This document shows positions 6,403 through 63,970 of a stretch of 64,000 nucleotides of DNA, piece by piece. This DNA comes from Stegostoma tigrinum. Lineage: Eukaryota. Location: assembly GCF_030684315.1 (NCBI RefSeq), contig NC_081397.1, positions 10,378,421-10,442,420 of the forward strand. The letters are read 5' to 3'. The number at the start of each line of letters is the position of its first letter. Within the stretch, counting starts at the first letter, position 1. The translations under genes were made by a program, and so were the position numbers. Under the pieces are notes generated by a model. The model saw only the letters and a list, made by a program, of their open reading frames with translations, was not told the origin of the DNA and made no database searches.

Positions 6403-6445
6403 GACCCCACATTGTGCTGAGAAAAACACACATCCAAAACCCAAC

Positions 6446-6461
6446 GGCTCTTTTCAGAGCC
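6446..6461 (+). terminator. Histone 3' stem-loop (H2B)
   Basis: GGCTCTTTTCAGAGCC followed by ACCCA and a purine-rich downstream element (AATGAAGCAG). Confidence 0.97.
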
Positions 6462-8139
6462 ACCCACAATTTCAATGAAGCAGTTGAACCATTTTACGTT
6501 TGTAAATGATTCTCGGTGTCTATAATTAATGTCCCTAATCTTTATCTTTGTTTACACAAACGTTCTAAACATTAACGTGCGGTCCCTGTCCCTCTGTCGG
6601 TTAGTTTCGGTTGCCTTCCTACCCAGTCTCTCCTCCCTCCCTGTACAGAAAGCACATTCATCGTCACTCAGGCATTTTTTTTTCAACAACTCCTTTGTGT
6701 TCCAGTTATTATTTACCCCTTGATCAGGAATTTCACCCCCTGGAAAGAAAACTAACTGCTCGAGTCCCACGAACAGATGTTGGGGGATACTTGTCATTGA
6801 GGATATCAGCTGTCGGTGAGAGGCTTTCAAAATGAGCTGAGATAAAGCCCGAGCCAGGATTGCAGTCGCAAGTGTGAAACTGTGTTCAAGGACAATATGG
6901 GAGGGCAACTTCAAACTATTGTTTCAAGTTTTAACCCGTTCACCCCGAAAAACTTTGTGTAAGTTTTTATAAATACATCAGCGTGCACTTGTAATGTGAA
7001 AGTGAACTAAATTCAAAGAAAAATTAAACTGTTTATTCCTCTTTGTGAAACTTTTCCCCCTATATCCTACATGTTGGAGGGTTTTTCAAATTTGTCCCAA
7101 TGGGGGTATGAACGCTGGATTTCACCCGTGGCAATGAAAAATTATGATCTCTTATTTGAGTCCCATTAAGAGAAATGCCGCGCGATTCCTTTTTCAATTT
7201 CCAAATTGTCAGGGAATTTTTCCGATTTTTTTTTTCAGTTTGCAGTGTGTGGGGCTTTTTGCTGTCGGTGAGAGGCTTTCAAAATGAACCGAGACCGTCC
7301 GGAAAGACTGATCCAGCACAATAAGTGAGGGCTATTTTACAATGTTTTCGGAAAACGGTGTTGCTTCGGGAGTGACAGAGAGAGATTATGTGAAGTGAAC
7401 ATTTTTAACTGAAAGGAAATTAAATCGTAAGCATTAACGCAAAAATACTTGTAAAAACTCTTCCTCGTATTGCCCATATTGGCGGGCTTTTCAAATCGGA
7501 CAGAAAACGGTTGATGATTTGGCGCCGGTATTTTCCTACGGTTTCCACGCAGAGGAATTTTGTTTTATTTTCAAATCTCCCCGCGGGTTCTATCCGGTTT
7601 TTCAGAAAGCTGTCAATGAGGCTTTCTGCAGTCGGCGGGAAAATTTCCAAGTGAACCGAGAGGAAAGCAGAACAGCTGCCGGACTGGCATCACAAAAGTG
7701 GAAATATTGTTGATCTTGTGCAATAGGGAGCGAGATTGTAAAATATTGTTTAAAGCAGTATTGAGTTCAACGAGAAAGAAACAGTTGTGTGATACTTTGA
7801 TTATTATATCCGGGTGTAGATGTGAATTAAATTCTATCTGTGCAGAGAATAACTTTCGGCGGGCTTTTCTTTCCCCCTTCCGCTTAATGTTAAGTTTTTT
7901 CGCGGGGTGGGGGGAATTCAAGATCAAAAATAGTTGGTTTCAACTAGGCCGGGAAATCAGAGAGAGATGGTGTGACGTATATAGGTGTATTCTAAAAGTA
8001 AATTATCCGAAGTAAGAACGCATTCTTCTTTGTAAAACTTCTACCCATTTCGAAATTATTGGCGGGCTTCTCCAGTTTGAAAGAAAGCGGTTGATGATTT
8101 GGCGCCGGGATTTTCCGGCCTCCTCCCCGGGCCCTCTCC

Positions 8140-8703: not shown

Positions 8704-8731
8704 AGACACTTCTTGAATCTGACAACCCAAA

Positions 8732-8747
8732 GGCTCTTTTAACAGCC
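8732..8747 (+). terminator. Histone 3' stem-loop (H2A), one stem mismatch
   Basis: GGCTCT-TTTA-ACAGCC then ACCCA; C8736 faces C8743. Downstream element GAAAAGCAG. Confidence 0.9.
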
Positions 8748-9449
8748 ACCCACAATATCAGTGAAAAGCAGCTAGACTTTCACTGCTGGCTAACTAATTT
8801 TCATTTTATGTGCAAACACGGTCCTCTAAACGCGCAAAAATCATCCCTTTTGTTTTCGCTTTAACAGTGATAAAACTAGAACGGGACGAATAAAGTTGGA
8901 GGGTTTGCTGCAGGGACAGCGACTGCGACTTTAAATAGTGACTCAAAGCGGTATCCCCATCCAGGGAACATGAGACATGGAATAGCTCGGCCCCAGAAAG
9001 ATGCCATGCGAGACAGAACCGACCATCCTCAGAGGATCGAATACACTTGTGGGAGATTGGGCAAAATTTCGATTGCATGGCCAAAACTACAAAAATCATT
9101 TGTGTAATGTGGCGGGTTTTGAAATTGGCGATTGTTTCCCACCCTCCTTCTCCGGCAAGTTCAGTTACAGCTGGCGAAACGCCACGGGAAGCAATTCCCA
9201 CACAGGCGGTCCAATTGGAAATGTACCAATTATAAAAGGGTGGAATGCAGTACTTGAATTTGTTGTGATTACTGAAAATTTATAAACCTGATCGTCCCGA
9301 GTTGCCTCGTCTTCAATATCAATTCGTGCATCCCAGACCCATTCATTTTCTGTAAGTCCTGTTGCATTGAGACATCAATAGCATGCTGTGCGATGACATT
9401 AACTAAAGTCCAGAGCCTGACGATTGCTGCTCTCTCGGGACAGTTTAGT

Positions 9450-9465
9450 GGCTCTGAAAAGAGCC
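9450..9465 (-). terminator. Histone 3' stem-loop (H3)
   Basis: Minus strand GGCTCTTTTCAGAGCC, then ACTAA and GAGAGAGCAG. Confidence 0.96.
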
Positions 9466-9509
9466 GTTGTGTTTCTCGGGGTGAATGTACAGGGCCGGGC
9501 ACGCTCCGT

Positions 9510-10477: not shown

Positions 10478-10598
10478 TCTGATGAAGGGTCTAGGCCCGA
10501 AACGTCAGCTTTTGTGCTCCTGAGATGCTGCTGTGTTCATCCATCCTCACATTTTATTATCTTGGATTCTCCAGCATCTGCAGTTCCCATTATCACTG
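10478..10598 (+). mobile_element. Solo PLE terminal fragment with intact hammerhead motif between H3 and H4
   Basis: CTGATGAAGGGTCTAGGCCCGAAACGTCAG (10479-10508), then CTTTTGTGCTCCTGAGATG...CAGTTCCCATTATCACT, matching the end of the 61-63.8 kb element. Confidence 0.9.
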
Positions 10599-10959
10599 GT
10601 GTTATTACTGATAGACTGGTATTCACATGGAAGAGAATCAAAGATTTAGGGTTGAGAAACAGATCAGCCATGGTCGCATGACGGAGCCGGCCGCTCCTTC
10701 TGTATCTGACATAACCAGCTGCAGAACCGTATCGTATCGACTGGCCGTGAAACCTCTATCTGTAGTGCAGGGATATCTTGATTATAAAACACGTTACTGC
10801 AGTCAGTATAATTTAACAATCTTGCTCTCTCTCTTGCAACGCGGGACACGAAGTTAATATATTTCCTAAAGGCTTGGTGCAAAATTAAAAGTCGCTGCAC
10901 CAGCCCAATGTGCTGGTTCCCCATTCTCAGGTCTCCGCTCTCAGGCGGAGGGTTTGGGT

Positions 10960-10975
10960 GGCTCTGAAAAGAGCC
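10960..10975 (-). terminator. Histone 3' stem-loop (H4)
   Basis: Minus strand GGCTCTTTTCAGAGCC followed by ACCCA. Confidence 0.97.
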
Positions 10976-11005
10976 TTTGGGTTTGCTGGAAAAGGGTTGA
11001 TTTGC

Positions 11006-11326
<321 letters not shown>

Positions 11327-11614
11327 TCACTCCAATCGCTGCCGAGTGAGAGCCGAGCTGCCTCGCCTTCCATTTTTATACAGCCCGCCCCGACCTGACT
11401 GAGAAACAGCTGACAGGGAGTGAGAGGATACCCGGGCAGAAAACTGAGTGACACACAGAGAAATGTCCAGCTCCGCCTACAGCTGACTGCCGCCCCCAAC
11501 TGGATCTGGAACTAAACCTTTTCTCCACAAGCGCAGTGAACACAAGGCCCGGCAGAAAACCTGCAGACTCAAACTTCTATTCAAAGATAATAAAACCGGG
11601 ATATTTTAAAAGCA

Positions 11615-11694
11615 AGATGACAAAGTATGAAGCTGGATGAACACAGCAGGCCAAGCAGCATCTCAGGAGCACAAAAGCTGATATCACTGATACA
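11615..11694 (-). mobile_element. Short PLE terminal fragment flanked by a 12-bp direct repeat
   Basis: Reverse complement of TCAGCTTTTGTGCTCCTGAGATGCTGC...; ATTTTAAAAGCA at 11603-11614 and 11695-11706. Confidence 0.75.
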
Positions 11695-11804
11695 ATTTTA
11701 AAAGCAGAGATAATGGGAACTGCAGATGCTGGAGAATTCCAAGATAGTAAAATGTGAGGCTGGATGAACACAGCAGGCCAAGCAGCATCTCAGGAGCACA
11801 AAAG

Positions 11805-11834
11805 CTGACGTTTCGGGCCTGGACCCTTCATCAG
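11805..11834 (-). ncRNA. Minimal type I hammerhead ribozyme motif (PLE)
   Basis: CTGATGA-A-GGGT-CCAG-GCCC-GAAA-C-GTC-AG. Confidence 0.75.
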
Positions 11835-13110
11835 AGAGGGGGATGGGGAGAGGGAACTGGAATAAATAGGGAGAGAGGGGGAGGCGGGCCGAAGATGGAG
11901 AGTAAAGAAGATAGGTGGAGAGAGTATAGGTGGGGAGGTAGGAAGGGGATAGGTCAGTCCAGGGAAGACGGACATGTCAAGGAGGTGGGATGAGGTGAGT
12001 AGGTAGATGGGGGTGCGGATTGGGGTGGGAGGAAGGGATGGGTGAGAGGGAGAACCGGTTAGGGAGGCAGAGGCAGGTTGGACTGGTTTTGGGATGCAGT
12101 GGGTGGGGGGGAAGAGATGGTCTGGTTGTGTGGTGCAGTGGGGGGAGGGGATGAACTGGGCTGGTTTTGGTATGCAGTAGGGGAAGGGGAGATTTTGAAA
12201 CTGGTGAAGTCCACATTGATACCATATGGCTGCAGGGTTCCCAAGCGGAATATGAGTTGCTGTTCCTGCAACCTTCGGGTGGCATCATTGTGGCAGTGCA
12301 GGAGGCCCATGATGGACATGTCATCTAAAGAATGGGAGGGGGAGTGGAAATGGTTTGCGACTGGGAGGTGCAGTTGTTTGTTGCAAACTGAGCGGAGGTG
12401 TTCTGCAAGGCGGTCTCCAAGCCTCCGCTTGGTTTCCCCAATGTAGAGGAAGCCGCACCGGGTACAGTGGATGCAATATACCACATTGGCAGATGTGCAG
12501 GTGAACCTCTGCTTAATGTGAAATGTCATCTTGGGGCCTGGGATAGGGGTGAGGGAGGAGGTGTGGGCTACACTTGCGTCCCAGTCACAAACCATTTCCA
12601 CTCCCCCTCCCATTCTTTAGATGACATGTCCATCATGGGCCTCCTGCACTGCCACAATGATGCCACCCGAAGGTTGCAGGAACAGCAACTCATATTCCAC
12701 CTGGGAACCCTGCAGCCTAATGGGATCAATGTGGACTTCACCAGTTTCAAAATCTCCCCTTCCCCAACTACATCCCTAAACCAGCCCAGTTCGTCCCCTC
12801 CCCCCACTGCACCACACAACCAGCCCAGCTCTTCCCCCCCACCCACTGCATCCCAAAACCAGTCCAACCTGTCTCTGCCTCCCTAACCGGTTCTTCCTCT
12901 CACCCATCCCTTCCTCCCACCCCAAGCCGCACCCCCATCTACCTACTAACCTCATCCCACCTCCTTGACCTGTCCGTCTTCCCTGGACTGACCTATCCCC
13001 TCCGTACTTCCCCACCTATACTCTCTCCACCGATCTTCTTTACTCTCCATCTTCAGCCCGCCTCCCCCTCTCTCCCTATTTATTCCAGAACCCTCTCCCC
13101 ATCCCCCTCT

Positions 13111-13140
13111 CTGATGAAGGGTCTAGGCCCGAAACGTCAG
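13111..13140 (+). ncRNA. Minimal type I hammerhead ribozyme motif (PLE)
   Basis: CTGATGA-A-GGGT-CTAG-GCCC-GAAA-C-GTC-AG. Confidence 0.75.
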
Positions 13141-13384
13141 CTTTTGTGCTCCTGAGATGCTGCTTGGCCTGCTGTGTTCATCCAGCCTCACATTTTATTA
13201 TCTTGGAATTCTCCAGCATCTGCAGTTCCCATTATCTCCAATACCAGAGAGATTCGGGATTGTAGTGGGGGTTGTAGTGATAGACCTTGCTGTTAGGGTG
13301 GATGGAGTCTATATCAAGTCTGATCAGTGTGTGTGAGGGTAAAACTGTGTCACAGAGTCGTGCAGTAAGGCATCCTTTGGCTTG

Positions 13385-15079: not shown

Positions 15080-15234
15080 GCGCATGCGTGAGGCCCTCTC
15101 CCAGCGCTGCCATTGTGGGGCATTGAGTCAGTGAGTGGAAGAGGTTAGTTTGAAACAGGCCGCAATGGAGAGACCAGCGCCCAGGGAAGCGAGGGAACAG
15201 CAGGCTCCTTCCAGCAGCGCATCGAGATGTGAGT
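15080..15234 (+). promoter_or_regulatory. CpG-rich promoter and putative first exon of an unknown plus-strand transcript
   Basis: GCGCATGCGT (NRF1-like) at 15080-15089, GCCGCAATGG strong-context ATG at 15165, consensus donor GTGAGT at 15229-15234. GC/CpG-rich to ~15450. Confidence 0.55.
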
Positions 15235-15479
15235 CTGGGGCACAGAGGGGGCTCCGAGACCGGCATTGATTCGGGTTCAGTTCAGGGAGAACCGTGGGCT
15301 GTTGGTAAGAGGCGGAGCGGAGCAGGAACTGGTCCCGGAACTTGGAGTGAGCGGCCTGTGGGCGGGGAGAGAGAGGCTTTTCTCGGGCTGTGTGTGGGCC
15401 TGTTGAGGGAGACACAGCGGCAAGAAGCTGCTGCTGGGGGTCAGGCTTGTAGCTTTTAGTCTTCTAAACACTGATGGAA

Positions 15480-15580
15480 AGCTTTTGTGCTCCTGAGATG
15501 CTGCTTGGCCTGCTGTGTTCATCCAGCCTCACATTTTATTATCTTGGAATCTCCAGCATCTGCAGTTCCCATTATCTCTG
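15480..15580 (+). mobile_element. ~100-nt PLE terminal insertion starting at the predicted hammerhead cleavage site
   Basis: Begins AGCTTTTGTGCTCC.. (the bases that follow GTC in full motifs) and ends ATTATCTCTG. TGGAAA at 15475-15480 and 15579-15584. Confidence 0.88.
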
Positions 15581-16072
15581 GAAATTCATTGTTCGGCTTC
15601 AATTTCGCGCTGTTTTTGGACATAGTGCCGTGAACAGTGGAAACACAGACTAGAGGCATGTTATAACCCTGAAAAGGACAGTTAATTGAGTCCCTAGGTT
15701 AAATTTCTCACCTGAAATATTTAAAATAGCGCCCTTTGTTCTTCCTTTTCACAGATAGTGTGTTGGGAGCCGGATATTGAACTGTGTATGTATGCATGCC
15801 TGCTCCTTCGGATAGCCCCATTTATGAAAGTACAGTTGTTGCTCAGTTTCTGGACCTCACTCATGTGATTTCGAATTATTTCAGGAAAAAAAGTACAATG
15901 AGAATCCCCAGAAAAGGAGCAGATCTGGAGAACAGAGAACAAAGCCTCTGGTTCTGTTCAATTTGTTAGTTTTCTTCTTTTAAAAACAAACACACGTCCC
16001 AATGATTATGAACTTAATGTTATGTTGATTACTTCAATACGGTCAGACTTTCTGTATGTTGACTTCCTCCAG

Positions 16073-17669: not shown

Positions 17670-19310
17670 TAGAAACTGACAGATACAGATTGATACCTAC
17701 ACTGACTCATTCACATTCCAGAAACACACAAAAGAAAATTGATGATGAATCACATATTCACATTCAAATAACAGGAACGGACATGGACTGATAATTTGAC
17801 TTGGCCATTCACACAGCAGAAACTGACTGGAGAGATGGGGAAATGCAGCCTCACATTTATGTTGCAGATACTGACAGCAAGAATAATGTTGTTAGACACA
17901 AATTCACAGAATAAAAACTGACTGGTACACATTGATAAATGCATTTGCCTATTCAAAGCCAGAAACTCATAGGTGGAAATTGATGGGTAAAATCACACAT
18001 TCCCAAAGCAGAATGATTGTTTGTAATAGTCTTGGTTTCAAATAACTGACGGGGACAGATTGGTAACTTCACTCACCGATGCACAGAGCAGAAACTGACA
18101 GGCATAGAGCAATAACTACACTCATCTGCTGCCGTAGGTACTGATTGACAATGACATGTACATATTCACACAGAAGAAACTGACAGGTATTCACTGATAA
18201 CTAAACTCATATATTGACATAACAGAAACTGCAAGTGATAGACTGAGAATTACACAAACATATTCACAAAGCAGAGGCTGAAAGTGTACAGATTGATAAC
18301 TACACAAACATATTCACACAGCAGTCTGAGAGGAATAGACTGATTGTTAAACTCACATAGACAGAGCAGAAACTGACAGGCAGAAATCAGCAGTGAAACT
18401 CTCATTCTTTTAGCTGAAACTGACAGGTAGAGATTAATAACTAAATCCTCACATTCACAAACCAGAAACTGACAGGTGCAGAATAATAATGACATTGACA
18501 TATGCACATAGCAGAAACTGACATGGACAGAATAAAAATATCATGCCCAGGCTCATTTGGCATCATCTGAACAGTACGTTTGAATAACTAAATTAATTTT
18601 CACAGAACAGAGTTTGCCAATTATGTATTGATATCTATATTCCAAGATTGACAGAGCAGAAACTGACAGGCATAAATTGATAACTGAAATCATATTCAAA
18701 GAGCAGAACCTGATTGGTACAGATCCAGAACTGCACTCACATATTAACATATCACTTGCTATCAGTTAGTTCCAGCTAACATCATTCACATATTGACAAA
18801 GAATTAACTGACAGATAAAAATTGACAACTATATTTATATATTCCCAGACCTGAAACCGGCAGGTACAGAGTGGTAAATACACTCATGCATTCACATATC
18901 AGACTGACAGGGACAAATTTTAAAACTACATTTCACAGAGCACAAGGACAAGAACAGATTGATCACAGCACTCATGCATTCACATATCAGGACCTAACAG
19001 GTAAGGATTGATAATTATACTCATGTTTTGAAGTAGCAGATGCTTACAGCTAGAGATTAATTACTGCACTCTCATATGCACAGTGCACAAACTGACAGAT
19101 AACTGATAACTGCACTCAAACATTCACATGGCAGAAACTAATATAAACAGATTGATAATAAGCTCATACTTGTATCGCAGAAATAGGCAGTGACTAACTA
19201 CTTCTGTGTGAATATGTAAACATATTTATCAGTCAGTCTCTGTCAGTTTCTACAATGTGGATATATCAGTTTAGTTATCAGTCTATAGTTGTCAGTTTCT
19301 GTGATGTGAA
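17670..19310 (+). repeat. Degenerate ~49-bp tandem repeat array 2 (about 30 units); terminal units inverted
   Basis: AGAAACTGACAG-like anchors at ~18175, 18224, 18273, 18322, 18368, 18415, 18464 and 18513. 19200-19310 reads CTGTCAGTTTCT (reverse orientation). About 2 more units at ~21285-21380. Confidence 0.85.
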
Positions 19311-24209: not shown

Positions 24210-24780
24210 GAAACTGACACGTACAGATTGATAACTACACCCACTTGTTCATATTGCAGAAACACACAAATGATGACAACACATTGACTACAATGTAAAG
24301 GTGTGACTGTAGTTATCAGTCTCTCTTGGTTTCTGCTAATGTCAGTCATGCATTCGCATTGCAGGAACTGTCAGGGAGAGATGAATAACTTCACCCTCAT
24401 TCTCAAAGCTAAAACGGACATACACAATGATAACTACACTCCCAGTTTCACAGCGCATAAACTGACAAGTATAGTCTGTTAACTAGACTCTCCTATTTAC
24501 AGAGCAGAATCTCACAGGTACATGTTGGGAACAGCACTCACACATTCACCAAGCAGGAACTGACAGGTGTACTTCGATAAGTACATTTACACACTGACAA
24601 GGCAGAAACGGAGAGGCATAGACTGGGAACTCATATTCACACAACAGAAACTGACAGATACAGATTAATGTTGTCACTCTCAATTCTCAGAGCAAAAACT
24701 AACAGATACAGGCTGGTAAATATAGTCATACATTTACATATGAGAAACTGACAAGTATATGTAGATAAATATATTGATTA
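24210..24780 (+). repeat. Degenerate ~49-bp tandem repeat array 3
   Basis: Same AAACTGACAG..GATAACTACACTC units, with one inverted unit at ~24298-24350. Confidence 0.8.
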
Positions 24781-45820: not shown

Positions 45821-47135
45821 TTATCATATTAGTTGCAATGAGAAACTCTAATTTGTTCAGTTTTGTTTCATTGAAAGTCACACACCTTAGGAAAGAAACA
45901 TTGTTTATTGAGAACTTACTGTATTCCAGGATTGCTTTTTATGCAAAAATAGGAATTTGAGAATGAATGGACATCCACTCTTGGATGTTATATCTCTGCC
46001 AATGTTGTCCCTTTCAGGACAGCTTCAATAACAATGTGAACATGGTCAAAGGTAGAAGATAGAGGGTGGTTTTAGCTGTTGCATGCTGATAGTTCCAGAT
46101 AGCTCAGTTGGCTAGATGGCTGGTTTTTGTCATACATTACATGCCAACCCTTGCCAACAGCATGGGTACAATTCCCACACCAGCTGAGGCTACCCTGAAG
46201 GATGCTCCTTCTGAACCTCTCCCCTCTCCTGAGGCGTGGTGATTCTCTAAAAGTTAAAACACCACCCAGTTCCCCTTCACTCTCTCTCTCCTATGAAAGA
46301 GCAGGCTGGTGGCTATGTAGAACATGACCATTTACTACTCATTCCCTTCAGACAAAGGCTAGAATGTGTTTGAATTCCATTGTACACAAGGCCAACTTCA
46401 GTTCAAATGTCCCTTGTGGGTGTTGACAGGTATCCGTGTGATAATTGTAAGTTCATCTTTCTGAGCAACAATATGACATGCGGTGCTTTTATTTTCTCTG
46501 TCATCTCAAATCAGCAGGTGGTAGCATTTTGCATATCCGCCTTGCGTATTATATGAGGAAAATGGAACTTGCTTTCTCTCTATCCATAGATGCTGCCAGA
46601 CCTGCTGAGCTCCTCCAGAAATATTTGAATTTATTTCTGATGTCCAGCATCCACAGTTCTTAGTTTTAAGAGAAAATGATCTACGTCTGCCTCAGTTAAG
46701 TGTAAAATGCATGTCCCACTGCTTATGTCACGCACAGAATGTTTCTACATGTACTAAACAGTAATTGGGAAGCGACCGCCTTCATAACACAGTCACCAAC
46801 ACACACGGCGATATATTTTTATTTCATTCATTCACAAGGTGTCACTGGCCAGGCCAGCATTTATTGCCCACCCCTAACTGTCTCCATTGCTGTGGGTCTG
46901 GAGTCACATGTTGGCCTGACCAGGTAAGGATTGCAGCTTCCTTCCCTAAAAAGCATTGGTAAATTCATTGGGCTTTTCCACAACAATTTCATGGTCATTG
47001 AACTCTGAATTCCAGATATTTATTGAATTCAAATTCTGTGGGAGGATTCAAACCCAGGTCCCCAGGACATTAGCCAGGGTCTTTGGATTAACAGTGAAGT
47101 GATAATATAACTAGACCATACCCCTTCTGTTTGGA

Positions 47136-47330
47136 ATAACCAGATGCGGTGCTGGATGAACACAGCAGGCCAGGCAGGGTCAGAGGAGCAAGAAAGAGGA
47201 CATTTCAGGTCTGGACTCTTCTTCATTTTCTGAAACATCGGCTTTCCTGCTCCTCTGATGCTGCCCTGGCCTGCTGTGTTCATCCAGCTCCACACCTTGT
47301 TATCTCAGACTCCAGCATTGGCAGTCCCTG
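47136..47330. mobile_element. Palindromic pair of PLE terminal fragments (hairpin)
   Basis: GCTGGATGAACACAGCAGGCCAGG..TCAGAGGAGCA versus TGCTCCTCTGA..CCTGGCCTGCTGTGTTCATCCAGC. Confidence 0.8.
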
Positions 47331-61003: not shown

Positions 61004-63487
61004 GTGACCCCGCCCACGGCCGACGCCGACGGAACCCCGCCCACGGCCGACGCCGACGGAACCCCGCCCACGGCCGACGGAACCCCACCCACGGCCGACG
61101 ACATCATCGCTCCGCCCACAACCTCCACAGCCTGCAACCCCAGAGGAGACAGCCACCCTGAGCCCTGCCGAATCTTCACCATCCCCCCAGACCTCCCACT
61201 GACTGAGGACGAACGGTCAGTCCTGAGCAAGGGGCTCACCTTTGTCCCCCTACAACCACACATCAACGAATACCAGTCACGGTCGGACATAGAGCAGTTT
61301 TTCCGCCGTCTTCGCCTGCATGCCTACTTCTTCAACCGGGAACCCAACCCTCCTTCCACTGACCCCTTCACCCGCTTCCAACACAAGTCCTCCTCCTGGA
61401 CACCACCCCCAGGCCTCCTACCCTCCCTCGACCTCTTCATCTCCAACTGCCGTCGAGACATTAACCGCCTCAACCTCTCCACCCCTCTCACCCACTCCAA
61501 CCTCTCCCCCGCAGAACGGGCAGCCCTCCGCTCCCTCCGCTCCAACCCCAACCTCACCATCAAACCCGCAGACAAGGGTGGCGCAGTGGTAGTATGGCGT
61601 ACTGACCTCTACATCGCCGAGGCCAGACGCCAACTCTCCGACACCACCTCCTACCGCCTCCTCGATCATGACCCCACACCCGAGCACCAAACCATCATCT
61701 CCAACACCATTCATGACCTCATCACCTCAGGGGACCTCCCACCCACAGCCTCCAACCTCATTGTTCCCCAACCCCGCACAGCCCGTTTCTATCTCCTTCC
61801 CAAAATCCACAAACCTGCCTGCCCTGGTCGACCCATCGTCTCAGCCTGCTCCTGCCCCACCGAACTCATCTCCACCTATCTGGACTCCATTTTCTCCCCT
61901 TTGGTCCAGGAACTCCCCACCTATGTCCGTGACACCACCCACGCCCTCCACCTCCTCCAGGACTTCCAATTCCCTGGCCCCCAACACCTCATATTCACCA
62001 TGGACGTCCAGTCCCTGTACACCTGCATTCCGCATGGAGATGGCCTCAAGGCCCTCCGCTTCTTCCTGTCCCGCAGGCCCGACCAGGCCCCCTCCACCGA
62101 CACTCTCATCCGCCTAGCGGAACTCGTCCTCACACTCAACAACTTCTCTTTTGACTCCTCCCACTTCCTACAGACTAAGGGGGTGGCCATGGGCACCCGC
62201 ATGGGCCCCAGCTATGCCTGCCTCTTTGTAGGTTACGTGGAACAGTCCATCTTCCGCACCTACACAGGCCCCAAACCCCACCTCTTCCTCCGGTACATTG
62301 ATGACTGTATCGGCGCCGCCTCTTGCTCCCCAGAGGAGCTCGAACAGTTCATCCACTTCACCAACACCTTCCACCCCAACCTTCAGTTCACCTGGGCCAT
62401 CTCCAGCACATCCCTCACCTTCCTGGACCTCTCAGTCTCCATCTCAGGCAACCAGCTTGTAACTGATGTCCATTTCAAGCCCACCGACTCCCACAGCTAC
62501 CTAGAATACACCTCCTCCCACCCACCCTCCTGCAAAAACTCCATCCCCTATTCCCAATTCCTCCGCCTCCGCCGCATCTGCTCCCACGATAAGACATTCC
62601 ACTCCCGCACATCCCAGATGTCCAAGTTCTTTAAGGACCGCAACTTCCCCCCCACGGTGATTGAGAACGCCCTTGACCGCGTCTCCCGCATTTCCCGCGA
62701 CACATCCCTCACACCCCGCCCCCGCCACAACCGCCCCAAGAGGATCCCCCTCGTTCTCACACACCACCCTACCAACCTCCGGATACAACGCATTATCCTC
62801 CGACACTTCCGCCATTTACAATCCGACCCCACCACCCAAGACATTTTTCCATCCCCACCCCTGTCTGCTTTCCGGAGAGACCACTCTCTCCGTGACTCCC
62901 TTGTTCGCTCCACACTGCCCTCCAACCCCACCACACCCGGCACCTTCCCCTGCAACCGCAGGAAATGCTACACTTGTCCCCACACCTCCTCCCTCACCCC
63001 CATCCCAGGCCCCAAGATGACATTCCACATTAAGCAGAGGTTCACCTGCACATCTGCCAATGTGGTATACTGCATCCACTGTACCCGGTGCGGCTTTCTC
63101 TACATTGGGGAAACCAAGCGGAGGCTTGGGGACCGCTTTGCAGAACACCTCCGCTCAGTTCGCAACAAACAACTGCACCTCCCAGTCGCAAACCATTTCC
63201 ACTCCCCCTCCCATTCTCTTGATGACATGTCCATCATGGGCCTCCTGCACTGCCACAATGATGCCACCCGAAGGTTGCAGGAACAGCAACTCATATTCCG
63301 CCTGGGAACCCTGCAGCCATATGGTATCAATGTGGACTTCACCAGTTTCAAAATCTCCCCTTCCCCCACTGCATCCCTAAACCAGCCCAGTTCATCCCCT
63401 CCCCCCACTGCACCACACAACCAGCCCAGCTCTTCCCCCCCACCCACTGCATCCCAAAACCAGTCCAACCTGTCTCTGCCTCCCTAA
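61004..63487 (+). CDS. PLE reverse transcriptase / GIY-YIG endonuclease (827 codons, no native ATG; N-terminus truncated)
   Basis: KPADKGG, LPKIHK, GRPIVS, DVQSLYT, GVAMG, RYIDD; linker CNRRKCYTC; NVVYCIHC..LYIGET..R..EH. Confidence 0.95.
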   Translation: MTPPTADADGTPPTADADGTPPTADGTPPTADDIIAPPTTSTACNPRGDSHPEPCRIFTIPPDLPLTEDERSVLSKGLTFVPLQPHINEYQSRSDIEQFFRRLRLHAYFFNREPNPPSTDPFTRFQHKSSSWTPPPGLLPSLDLFISNCRRDINRLNLSTPLTHSNLSPAERAALRSLRSNPNLTIKPADKGGAVVVWRTDLYIAEARRQLSDTTSYRLLDHDPTPEHQTIISNTIHDLITSGDLPPTASNLIVPQPRTARFYLLPKIHKPACPGRPIVSACSCPTELISTYLDSIFSPLVQELPTYVRDTTHALHLLQDFQFPGPQHLIFTMDVQSLYTCIPHGDGLKALRFFLSRRPDQAPSTDTLIRLAELVLTLNNFSFDSSHFLQTKGVAMGTRMGPSYACLFVGYVEQSIFRTYTGPKPHLFLRYIDDCIGAASCSPEELEQFIHFTNTFHPNLQFTWAISSTSLTFLDLSVSISGNQLVTDVHFKPTDSHSYLEYTSSHPPSCKNSIPYSQFLRLRRICSHDKTFHSRTSQMSKFFKDRNFPPTVIENALDRVSRISRDTSLTPRPRHNRPKRIPLVLTHHPTNLRIQRIILRHFRHLQSDPTTQDIFPSPPLSAFRRDHSLRDSLVRSTLPSNPTTPGTFPCNRRKCYTCPHTSSLTPIPGPKMTFHIKQRFTCTSANVVYCIHCTRCGFLYIGETKRRLGDRFAEHLRSVRNKQLHLPVANHFHSPSHSLDDMSIMGLLHCHNDATRRLQEQQLIFRLGTLQPYGINVDFTSFKISPSPTASLNQPSSSPPPTAPHNQPSSSPPPTASQNQSNLSLPP

Positions 63488-63711
63488 CCGGTTCTTCCTC
63501 TCACCCATCCCTTCCTCCCACCCCCAGCCGCACCCCCAGCTACCTACTAACCTCATCCCACCTCCTTGACCTGTCCGTCTTCCCTGGACTGACCTATCCC
63601 CTCCCTACCTCCCCACCTACACCCTCTCCACCTATCTTCTTTGCTCTCCATCTTCGGTCCGCCTCCCCCTCTCTCCCTATTTATTCCAGTTCCCTCCCCC
63701 CATCCCCCTCT

Positions 63712-63741
63712 CTGATGAAGGGTCTAGGCCCGAAACGTCAG
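63712..63741 (+). ncRNA. Minimal type I hammerhead ribozyme motif (PLE)
   Basis: CTGATGA-A-GGGT-CTAG-GCCC-GAAA-C-GTC-AG; predicted cut after C63739. Confidence 0.78.
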
Positions 63742-63970
63742 CTTTTGTGCTCCTGAGATGCTGCTTGGCCTGCTGTGTTCATCCAGCCTCACATTTTATT
63801 ATCTTGGAATCTCCAGCATCTGCAGTTCCCATTATCTCTGACTCATTACCCTGTGCTGTTTGTCTCTGCAGCTCTAATATATGGCTGTGGATGTGGGGAA
63901 TGATGATAATCTGTCTCTACTTTGAATCCTTCACAGTTTAAAGAAAGGAACAATAATAAACGGTACTCAC

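Follow-up and report, generated by a model that had tools for sequence, protein, structure and literature searches.

The 5' ends of a young Penelope-like element (PLE) family in Stegostoma tigrinum form a sharp local peak at +1, the first base after the predicted cut of a minimal hammerhead ribozyme, although this peak is not the only one and the end at -32 is larger. In our view the +1 ends probably record a cut by the ribozyme in a minority of the template RNAs. A single stub that starts at +1, such as the insertion described below, is a weak case, and the excess is visible in genome-wide counts only.

The element family and its predicted hammerhead

The window is the whole 64,000-nt stretch of DNA analysed, and coordinates refer to it. 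Element positions are counted from +1, the A directly after GAAACGTC (window 63740 in the reference copy), and position 0 is absent. Statements about published systems refer to the available portions of the cited papers. The reference copy and its ribozyme core are as follows.

62695..63841, plus strand: longest young copy in the window, used as reference, with the 3' part of the ORF, the 3' UTR and the hammerhead
63712..63739, plus strand: minimal hammerhead core of an intact copy, with CUGAUGA, an extra A, a 4-bp stem II and GAAAC-GUC

The ORF part of the reference copy (62696-63487) contains a GIY-YIG endonuclease and a CX4CxxC linker and is followed by a pyrimidine-rich 3' UTR and the hammerhead, whose predicted cut falls between 63739 and 63740. 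The endonuclease is C-terminal, lies on the hammerhead strand and carries the motif VVYCIHC..FLYIG; the Pfam GIY-YIG model matched it with an E value of 5.9e-4 and 20.5 bits, below the curated cut-off of 22.6. The linker, CNRRKCYTC, fits the CX2-5CxxC pattern before the endonuclease, which is a Neptune-type feature (PMC8557442). Moreover, insertions of the family have an inverted partner, an optional 30-40-nt tail and a target duplication of variable length, as in EN+ PLEs. Judged by these sequence features, the element is a predicted PLE of the EN+ type with a Neptune-type linker. A search of the 3.2-Gb genome gave 185,160 exact matches to element +2..+24.

The core (CUGANGA / GAAA / UH) was conserved at 90-99% per position in 188 young copies and at 69-100% in 55 older copies, with the lowest values at CpG sites. 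The extra nucleotide between 9 and 10.1 was A in 98%, and the G10.1-C11.1 pair was kept in 98%. The fourth pair of helix II was U-G in young copies and U-G or U-A (25:25) in older ones. Positions 15.2-16.2 are palindromic without a helix III (C 88%, G 88%; ACGU). Metazoan PLE minimal hammerheads (min-HHRs) likewise have a Type I core without helix III, palindromic 15.2-16.2, the extra base at 9/10.1 and the G10.1-C11.1 pair, and they occur mostly as solo truncated copies (PMC4209133). Helix I consists here of two pairs (88% and 86%; a third pair in 10%), which is shorter than the 4-5 bp typical of min-HHRs, although 2 bp are reported in D. virilis (PMC4209133). An Rfam scan of the window at E<=1 returned no hammerhead match, such a scan being uninformative for minimal motifs.

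The stub and its insertion site

The original prediction described an insertion of about 100 nt, flanked by TGGAAA repeats, that starts at the hammerhead cut and has nothing of the upstream ribozyme core. The following features were assigned at this site.

15475..15480, plus strand: left copy of the target-site duplication (6 nt), present as one copy only in 7 empty paralogous sites
15480..15580, plus strand: PLE pseudo-LTR (pLTR) stub, element +1 to +101, identical to the long-copy end 63740-63840 at 101/101 positions
15579..15584, plus strand: right copy of the target-site duplication, assigned from the repeat sequence, the match to the long copy and the empty sites

Window 15475-15584 thus reads TGGAAA, element piece, TGGAAA, and the 5' base of the stub is the first one after the predicted cut (GUC). 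The last A of the left duplication is also element +1, the first TG of the right duplication is also the element end, and the insertion-specific part is 98 nt (15481-15578). Since the first A is common to the left duplication, the true start of the stub is +1 or +2, an ambiguity of which the original prediction had itself warned. The 3' end corresponds to the +100 site, a putative start of reverse transcription.

Searching the genome with a 701-nt host segment revealed six filled copies, the window's own included, and many without the insert, all on the same contig. Twelve paralogous stretches were fetched and eight matched the flank probe; seven of these were empty with a single TGGAA(A/G) and one was filled. 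The single hexamer in the seven empty sites indicated that the 6-nt target duplication is real, and together with the 101/101 identity it confirmed a flanked stub that starts at the predicted cut. A host CTGATG..GAAA upstream of the stub was considered as a deleted ribozyme core and ruled out, as it is present in the empty sites; the nearby CTGATG belongs to the host, and the absence of an upstream core from the stub held up. Because the stub occurs in six near-identical host-segment copies, the insertion is older than the recent segmental amplification. Among 65 matches listed for the host segment (window 15200-15900), dozens of copies at 92-100% lie on contig C56.

Other copies and features of the window

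Three further entries of the family were assigned in the window.

10478..10598, plus strand: majority-class short copy that begins at -29/-30, right 5' of the ribozyme core, and has a target duplication
11615..11694, minus strand: second short PLE copy, with a 13-nt inverted element piece ahead of its match, which spans -2 to about +65
11705..13238, both strands: two longer 5'-truncated copies placed head to head, on the minus strand at 11705-12567 and on the plus strand at 12579-13238

The copy at 11615-11694 had been put forward as a second start within 2 nt of the cut. Its match does begin at -2, and a 12-nt duplication was found at 11603-11614 and 11695-11706; however, the 13-nt 'filler' is an inverted element piece (about +95 to +107), so that this insertion has two arms and does not serve as a clean second example.

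A plant microRNA hairpin reported by Rfam at 47125-47316 was rejected as a false match arising from the fold-back of a head-to-head PLE pair of an older subfamily. Four histone 3' stem-loop matches were also present (6441-6486, 8727-8771, 9425-9470 and 10935-10980; one above the gathering score), and a histone gene cluster is likely. A degenerate 49-nt repeat occurs in many copies at 17674-19134 and 24212-24773 (families D4, D5 and D7).

Distribution of 5' ends across the genome

Among 131 copies in an unselected 570 kb plus the window, 34 started at -32 to -26 and three at +1, the stub included, a sample too small for +1. The long-end bins near -117, -200 and -372 in this sample represent alignment limits or subfamily differences. 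A search catching ends from -8 to +28 gave 5,018 matches. By-eye tallies in this and the other searches used the 100 rows listed per search, a non-random set made up of the earliest places on the first contigs. Among the matches listed here, +1 accounted for 21/100 rows, 13 rows being perfect palindromes (8 events), and +8 accounted for 11/100 rows versus 8 non-palindromic rows at +1; +6 and +10 had 6/100 rows each, and -1 to -8 all together had 7/100.

Exact searches found 1,024 non-palindromic ends at +1 and 607 ends at -1 to -5 pooled; +2 to +6 pooled gave 2,129, for which 34/100 listed rows were small indels. Seventy +1 loci were fetched, and the 69 that were sorted into classes comprised 33 inverted, 8 tandem and 16 single-arm cases together with 12 indels or deletions. 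Genome-wide numbers were then estimated by scaling for detection and are rough, as junction bases are non-random. On this scale about 1,900 non-palindromic ends and 1,454 palindromic arms lie at +1 (1.8% of copies), compared with 230-420 per base from -1 to -5, 340-680 per base from +2 to +4, about 950 at +5 and about 1,760 at +6. Ends at +1 are therefore 3-8 times as frequent as at each flanking base and make up about 2% of some 185,000 copies. The even spread of breakpoints that would have contradicted the original prediction was not seen; instead, a one-base peak stands at the predicted cut and persists beside controls.

Single-arm ends, estimated from small samples (16/69, 14/50 and 13/50 loci), gave a similar picture, with about 540 at +1 versus 0-135 at -5 to -2 and +2 to +4, and 232 at -1. 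Two single-arm +1 insertions without any target match were seen (L058 and L292). A target match of 1-4 nt was present in 6/7 single-arm +1 copies with a clear duplication, so that the true start of those six lies between +1 and +5. Taken with the genome-wide counts, the stub very probably belongs to the +1 excess over background.

A broad hump of 5' ends was also observed at +6 to +10, just past the U run; +6 has about the same number of ends as non-palindromic +1, and in single-arm copies it has twice as many. The hump may consist of trimmed +1 ends, of matches to AT-rich targets or of ends left by a stall. By eye and among the matches listed, the AGCC variant, which is older and has the same core, had no peak (+1 6/100 rows, neighbours 1-10), and the older AGCT subfamily had a weak one (8-14 of 100 rows).

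The main end at -32

The main 5' end of the family, at -32, lies 4 nt ahead of the ribozyme core and is sharply bounded on its upstream side. By the same scaling it comprises about 15,000 ends and is roughly 4-8 times commoner than +1. An extra 5' G is linked to the RNA cap. Untemplated G has been described at the 5' ends of L1 retro-insertions (PMC4729875). Among the matches listed, a G counted by eye preceded the -32 end in 83/100 rows and the +1 end in 23/100 rows, with 27% expected. Part of the excess at -32 comes from the partner arm, and a test on single-arm copies was not significant (11/21 vs 6/22, p 0.12), 14 of the 21 coming from 20 loci picked as single-looking. These data suggest that -32 is likely a capped transcription start, and they lean towards RNAs that are capped when they begin at -32 and lack a cap when they end at +1.

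Palindromic joins and paired arms

Perfect head-to-head joins numbered 727 on AGCT (+1 to +4). The control palindrome ACGT, four bases upstream, gave 53 with CpG decay allowed, and GGCC at +28 gave 24, indicating that a 4-nt palindrome alone is insufficient. In the older AGCT subfamily, two palindromes were counted by eye in 100 rows among the matches listed. At least one palindrome-continuing base was present in 49/100 listed non-palindromic +1 rows, with 37% expected.

Partner arms were compared after exclusion of pairs with an ORF-piece partner and of one duplicate row. The partner ended at or after +1 in 28/42 pairs having a +1 arm, in 3/26 with an arm at -1 to -5 and in 2/21 with an arm at -32; with the upstream arms pooled, partners without the core were found in 5/47 versus 28/42 for +1 arms (p 4e-8). 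Without junctions able to continue the palindrome, the count was 11/20 (p 0.003 vs 3/26). In a comparison of shared fate, partner ends in +1..+21 versus -21..-1 stood at 18:0 against 2:11. Furthermore, for arms ending at -3 to -5 the partners were upstream in all listed pLTR pairs. These counts point to two template states with a border between -1 and +1. Part of this shared boundary could stem from later deletions within AGCT palindromes, so that the boundary and the palindrome count are not wholly separate lines of evidence. Among 33 unselected head-to-head pairs, those of the young family comprised 5 with both arms downstream, 3 mixed and 6 with both upstream, which leans towards shared fate; the end calls were noisy, and these pairs are given no weight as support. 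In mixed pairs the arm stopping at +1 was the long one in six and the short one in three, giving no signal.

One long (+100) and one short (+65) arm were combined in 154/179 head-to-head pairs, and both arms carried common subfamily markers in 155/179, with 32% expected. This marker sharing fits one RNA, two RNAs from one locus, or later conversion. Two insertions (L063 and L111) join a young-family arm to a piece of an older family, so the two arms can occasionally differ in origin.

3' ends and tandem units

All copy classes have the same 3' ends, near +65 and +100, and these are better read as internal starts of reverse transcription. Units begun at +1 extend to +46, +105, +125 or +284. The stub is a single unit without the core, and the +1 tandem units (46, 105, 126 and 284 nt) are also without it. 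Since +1 units extend variably past the stub length, the template was longer than the insert; with variable unit lengths, and one unit reaching far into the element, no discrete short RNA is needed. The suggestion that cleavage releases a separate short mobile RNA is therefore not supported.

At one locus (L301, 628-674 nt, at the centre), eight tandem units of 46-48 nt restart at +1 within one target duplication. Its linkers are 0-2 nt and 3/7 end in C, matching -1; the array looks like repeated run-off and re-priming. Units of 105-106, 126 and 284 nt likewise restart at +1 at L298, L324 and L123, also with 0-2 nt linkers. A different array (L357, G000:C2:58043053-58044749) consists of at least nine 208-nt units in tandem, each of which spans -5 to about +203.

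Discussion

On balance we favour the view that the stub, a dead-end insertion, was copied from an RNA whose 5' end was made by the predicted hammerhead cut. In this scheme the endonuclease opened the target with the 6-nt stagger recorded in the duplication, and reverse transcription would start internally at about +100, as suggested by the common +65/+100 ends and by the Anolis Poseidon element PAc. Most RNAs would be capped at -32, remain uncut and yield the majority class; a minority would be cut after GUC by the minimal hammerhead, probably aided by a protein or a second RNA, and the enzyme would run off at +1. The cDNA end was then joined to the target via the 1-nt match seen at the left flank. 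The same run-off could give the AGCT head-to-head pairs, the +1 tandem restarts and probably the +2 to +10 shoulder. Most templates are uncut, and cleavage at +1 is a prediction. The original idea of a fossil of ribozyme-cut RNA thus gains from the peak, the partner boundary and the lack of an extra-G mark, but it covers only about 2% of ends, and a stall is a possible substitute.

The one-base +1 peak and the partner boundary favour a cut over such a stall, in which the enzyme would stop on uncut RNA at a folded or protein-bound 6-bp CUGAUG/CGUCAG stem and the cut site would be coincidental; we regard this as unlikely. The predicted fold of -32..+10 does contain an inactive stem of this kind, closing at +2 and pairing -28..-23 with -4..+2 (-11.4 kcal/mol vs -3.6 kcal/mol for the hammerhead fold). 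In the young family, which has the strong peak, the stem has twice the stability predicted for the older subfamily (-5.5 kcal/mol), which has the weak one, so stalling and higher ribozyme activity would lead to one and the same trend among subfamilies. A stall is also favoured by the hump at +6 to +10; telomerase has a template boundary, and the U-rich linker with the hump at +6 to +8 would resemble it. However, the peak is one base wide and at +1 rather than +2/+3, the arms that end within the stem (-3 to -5) all have upstream partners in the listed pLTR pairs, and independent stalls give no shared partner boundary, although a state common to one RNA could. It is less probable still that no RNA end is involved, with the self-complementary AGCT annealing two cDNAs and later deletions making the other +1 junctions. 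Microhomology joins are described for PLEs (PMC3846280), and the 727 perfect palindromes, the excess of palindrome-continuing bases (49/100 listed rows vs 37%), the use of AGC or CT matches at several junctions and the lack of a peak in the AGCC variant, which has no palindrome, all suit such end joining. Against this, equivalent palindromes gave 53 and 24 joins, with the reservation that ACGT is closer to the main -32 end; only two palindromes were counted in 100 listed rows of the older AGCT subfamily, and the peak remains in single-arm and tandem copies without a partner.

We give very little weight to +1 being a second transcription start with no cut. The sequence TCA+1G, which we take to resemble an initiator motif, and the sharp template end, the run-off and the shared fate of arms would also be expected from a second start. 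Initiator-like motifs have been described in PLE pLTRs (PMC3846280). A preceding G, however, is in strong excess at -32 (83/100) and not at +1 (23/100) in the listed rows, an argument limited by the contribution of the partner arm at -32 and by the single-arm test (p 0.12). There is a similarly slight chance that the footprint is real for the class and the stub itself is an ordinary truncation that happened to fall at +1 or +2; its first A is common to the target and background single-arm ends occur at all neighbouring positions, but this background averages about 75, against an estimate of about 540 for single-arm ends at +1, a share of about 15% derived from small samples.

Returning to cleavage as the preferred reading, one tentative and rather doubtful extension is that, within the integrating particle, a dimeric PLE protein holds two RNAs from the same locus, whose ribozymes pair via ACGU and cut together so that both cDNAs stop at +1. 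If this were true, the ribozyme would be a switch limiting the extent of copying, and dimeric PLE hammerheads would have in the two-arm scars their first in vivo read-out.

Several known systems resemble the present one in part. PAc also has two internal start sites, shown in vitro, extends both target strands and uses uncut RNA as the dominant template (Frangieh et al. 2024, PMC11167929). For PAc, Frangieh et al. found neither RNA-seq ends at the cut nor an in vitro role for cleavage, whereas about 2% of genomic ends lie at the cut here; PAc is a Poseidon element and the present element has a Neptune-type linker. Head-to-head arms, the 30-40-nt tail, the variable target duplication and palindromes at inverted junctions are shared with EN+ PLEs (Craig et al. 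2021, PMC8557442; Adineta Penelopes, PMC3846280); in their available portions those papers do not link junction positions to the ribozyme cut, as is done here. The 5' HDV-like ribozymes of R2 and L1Tc also show that a cut can set the 5' end of the copied RNA, but there it routinely frees the element from a co-transcript (PMC6765202), whereas here the cut class makes up only a small part of the ends and the main 5' end has the look of a capped one. A regular ribozyme-defined 5' end of the R2 kind was not found, with about 2% of ends at +1 and the main end at -32. Animal non-LTR retrozymes are likewise short PLE-related units, sometimes in tandem (bioRxiv 10.64898/2026.07.22.740005); each of their units has a hammerhead, whereas the stub and the +1 units have none and no fixed length.

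Whether PLE hammerheads cut in vivo is an open question in the available literature (PMC4209133, PMC8557442, PMC11167929). Cervera and De la Pena (2014) state that there is no in vivo evidence for them (PMC4209133), and Craig et al. (2021) describe their function in PLEs as unclear (PMC8557442). Literature searches, whose coverage lay mostly outside subscription papers, found no published PLE cut-site footprint. Set against the report of Cervera and De la Pena, the insertion ends described here are an indirect in vivo footprint, and among about 185,000 young copies thousands of template ends are preserved to the exact base. Should the +1 class represent cleavage, its rate would be a few per cent of ends, or perhaps about 10% once the shoulder is included, and cutting would not be needed for insertion.
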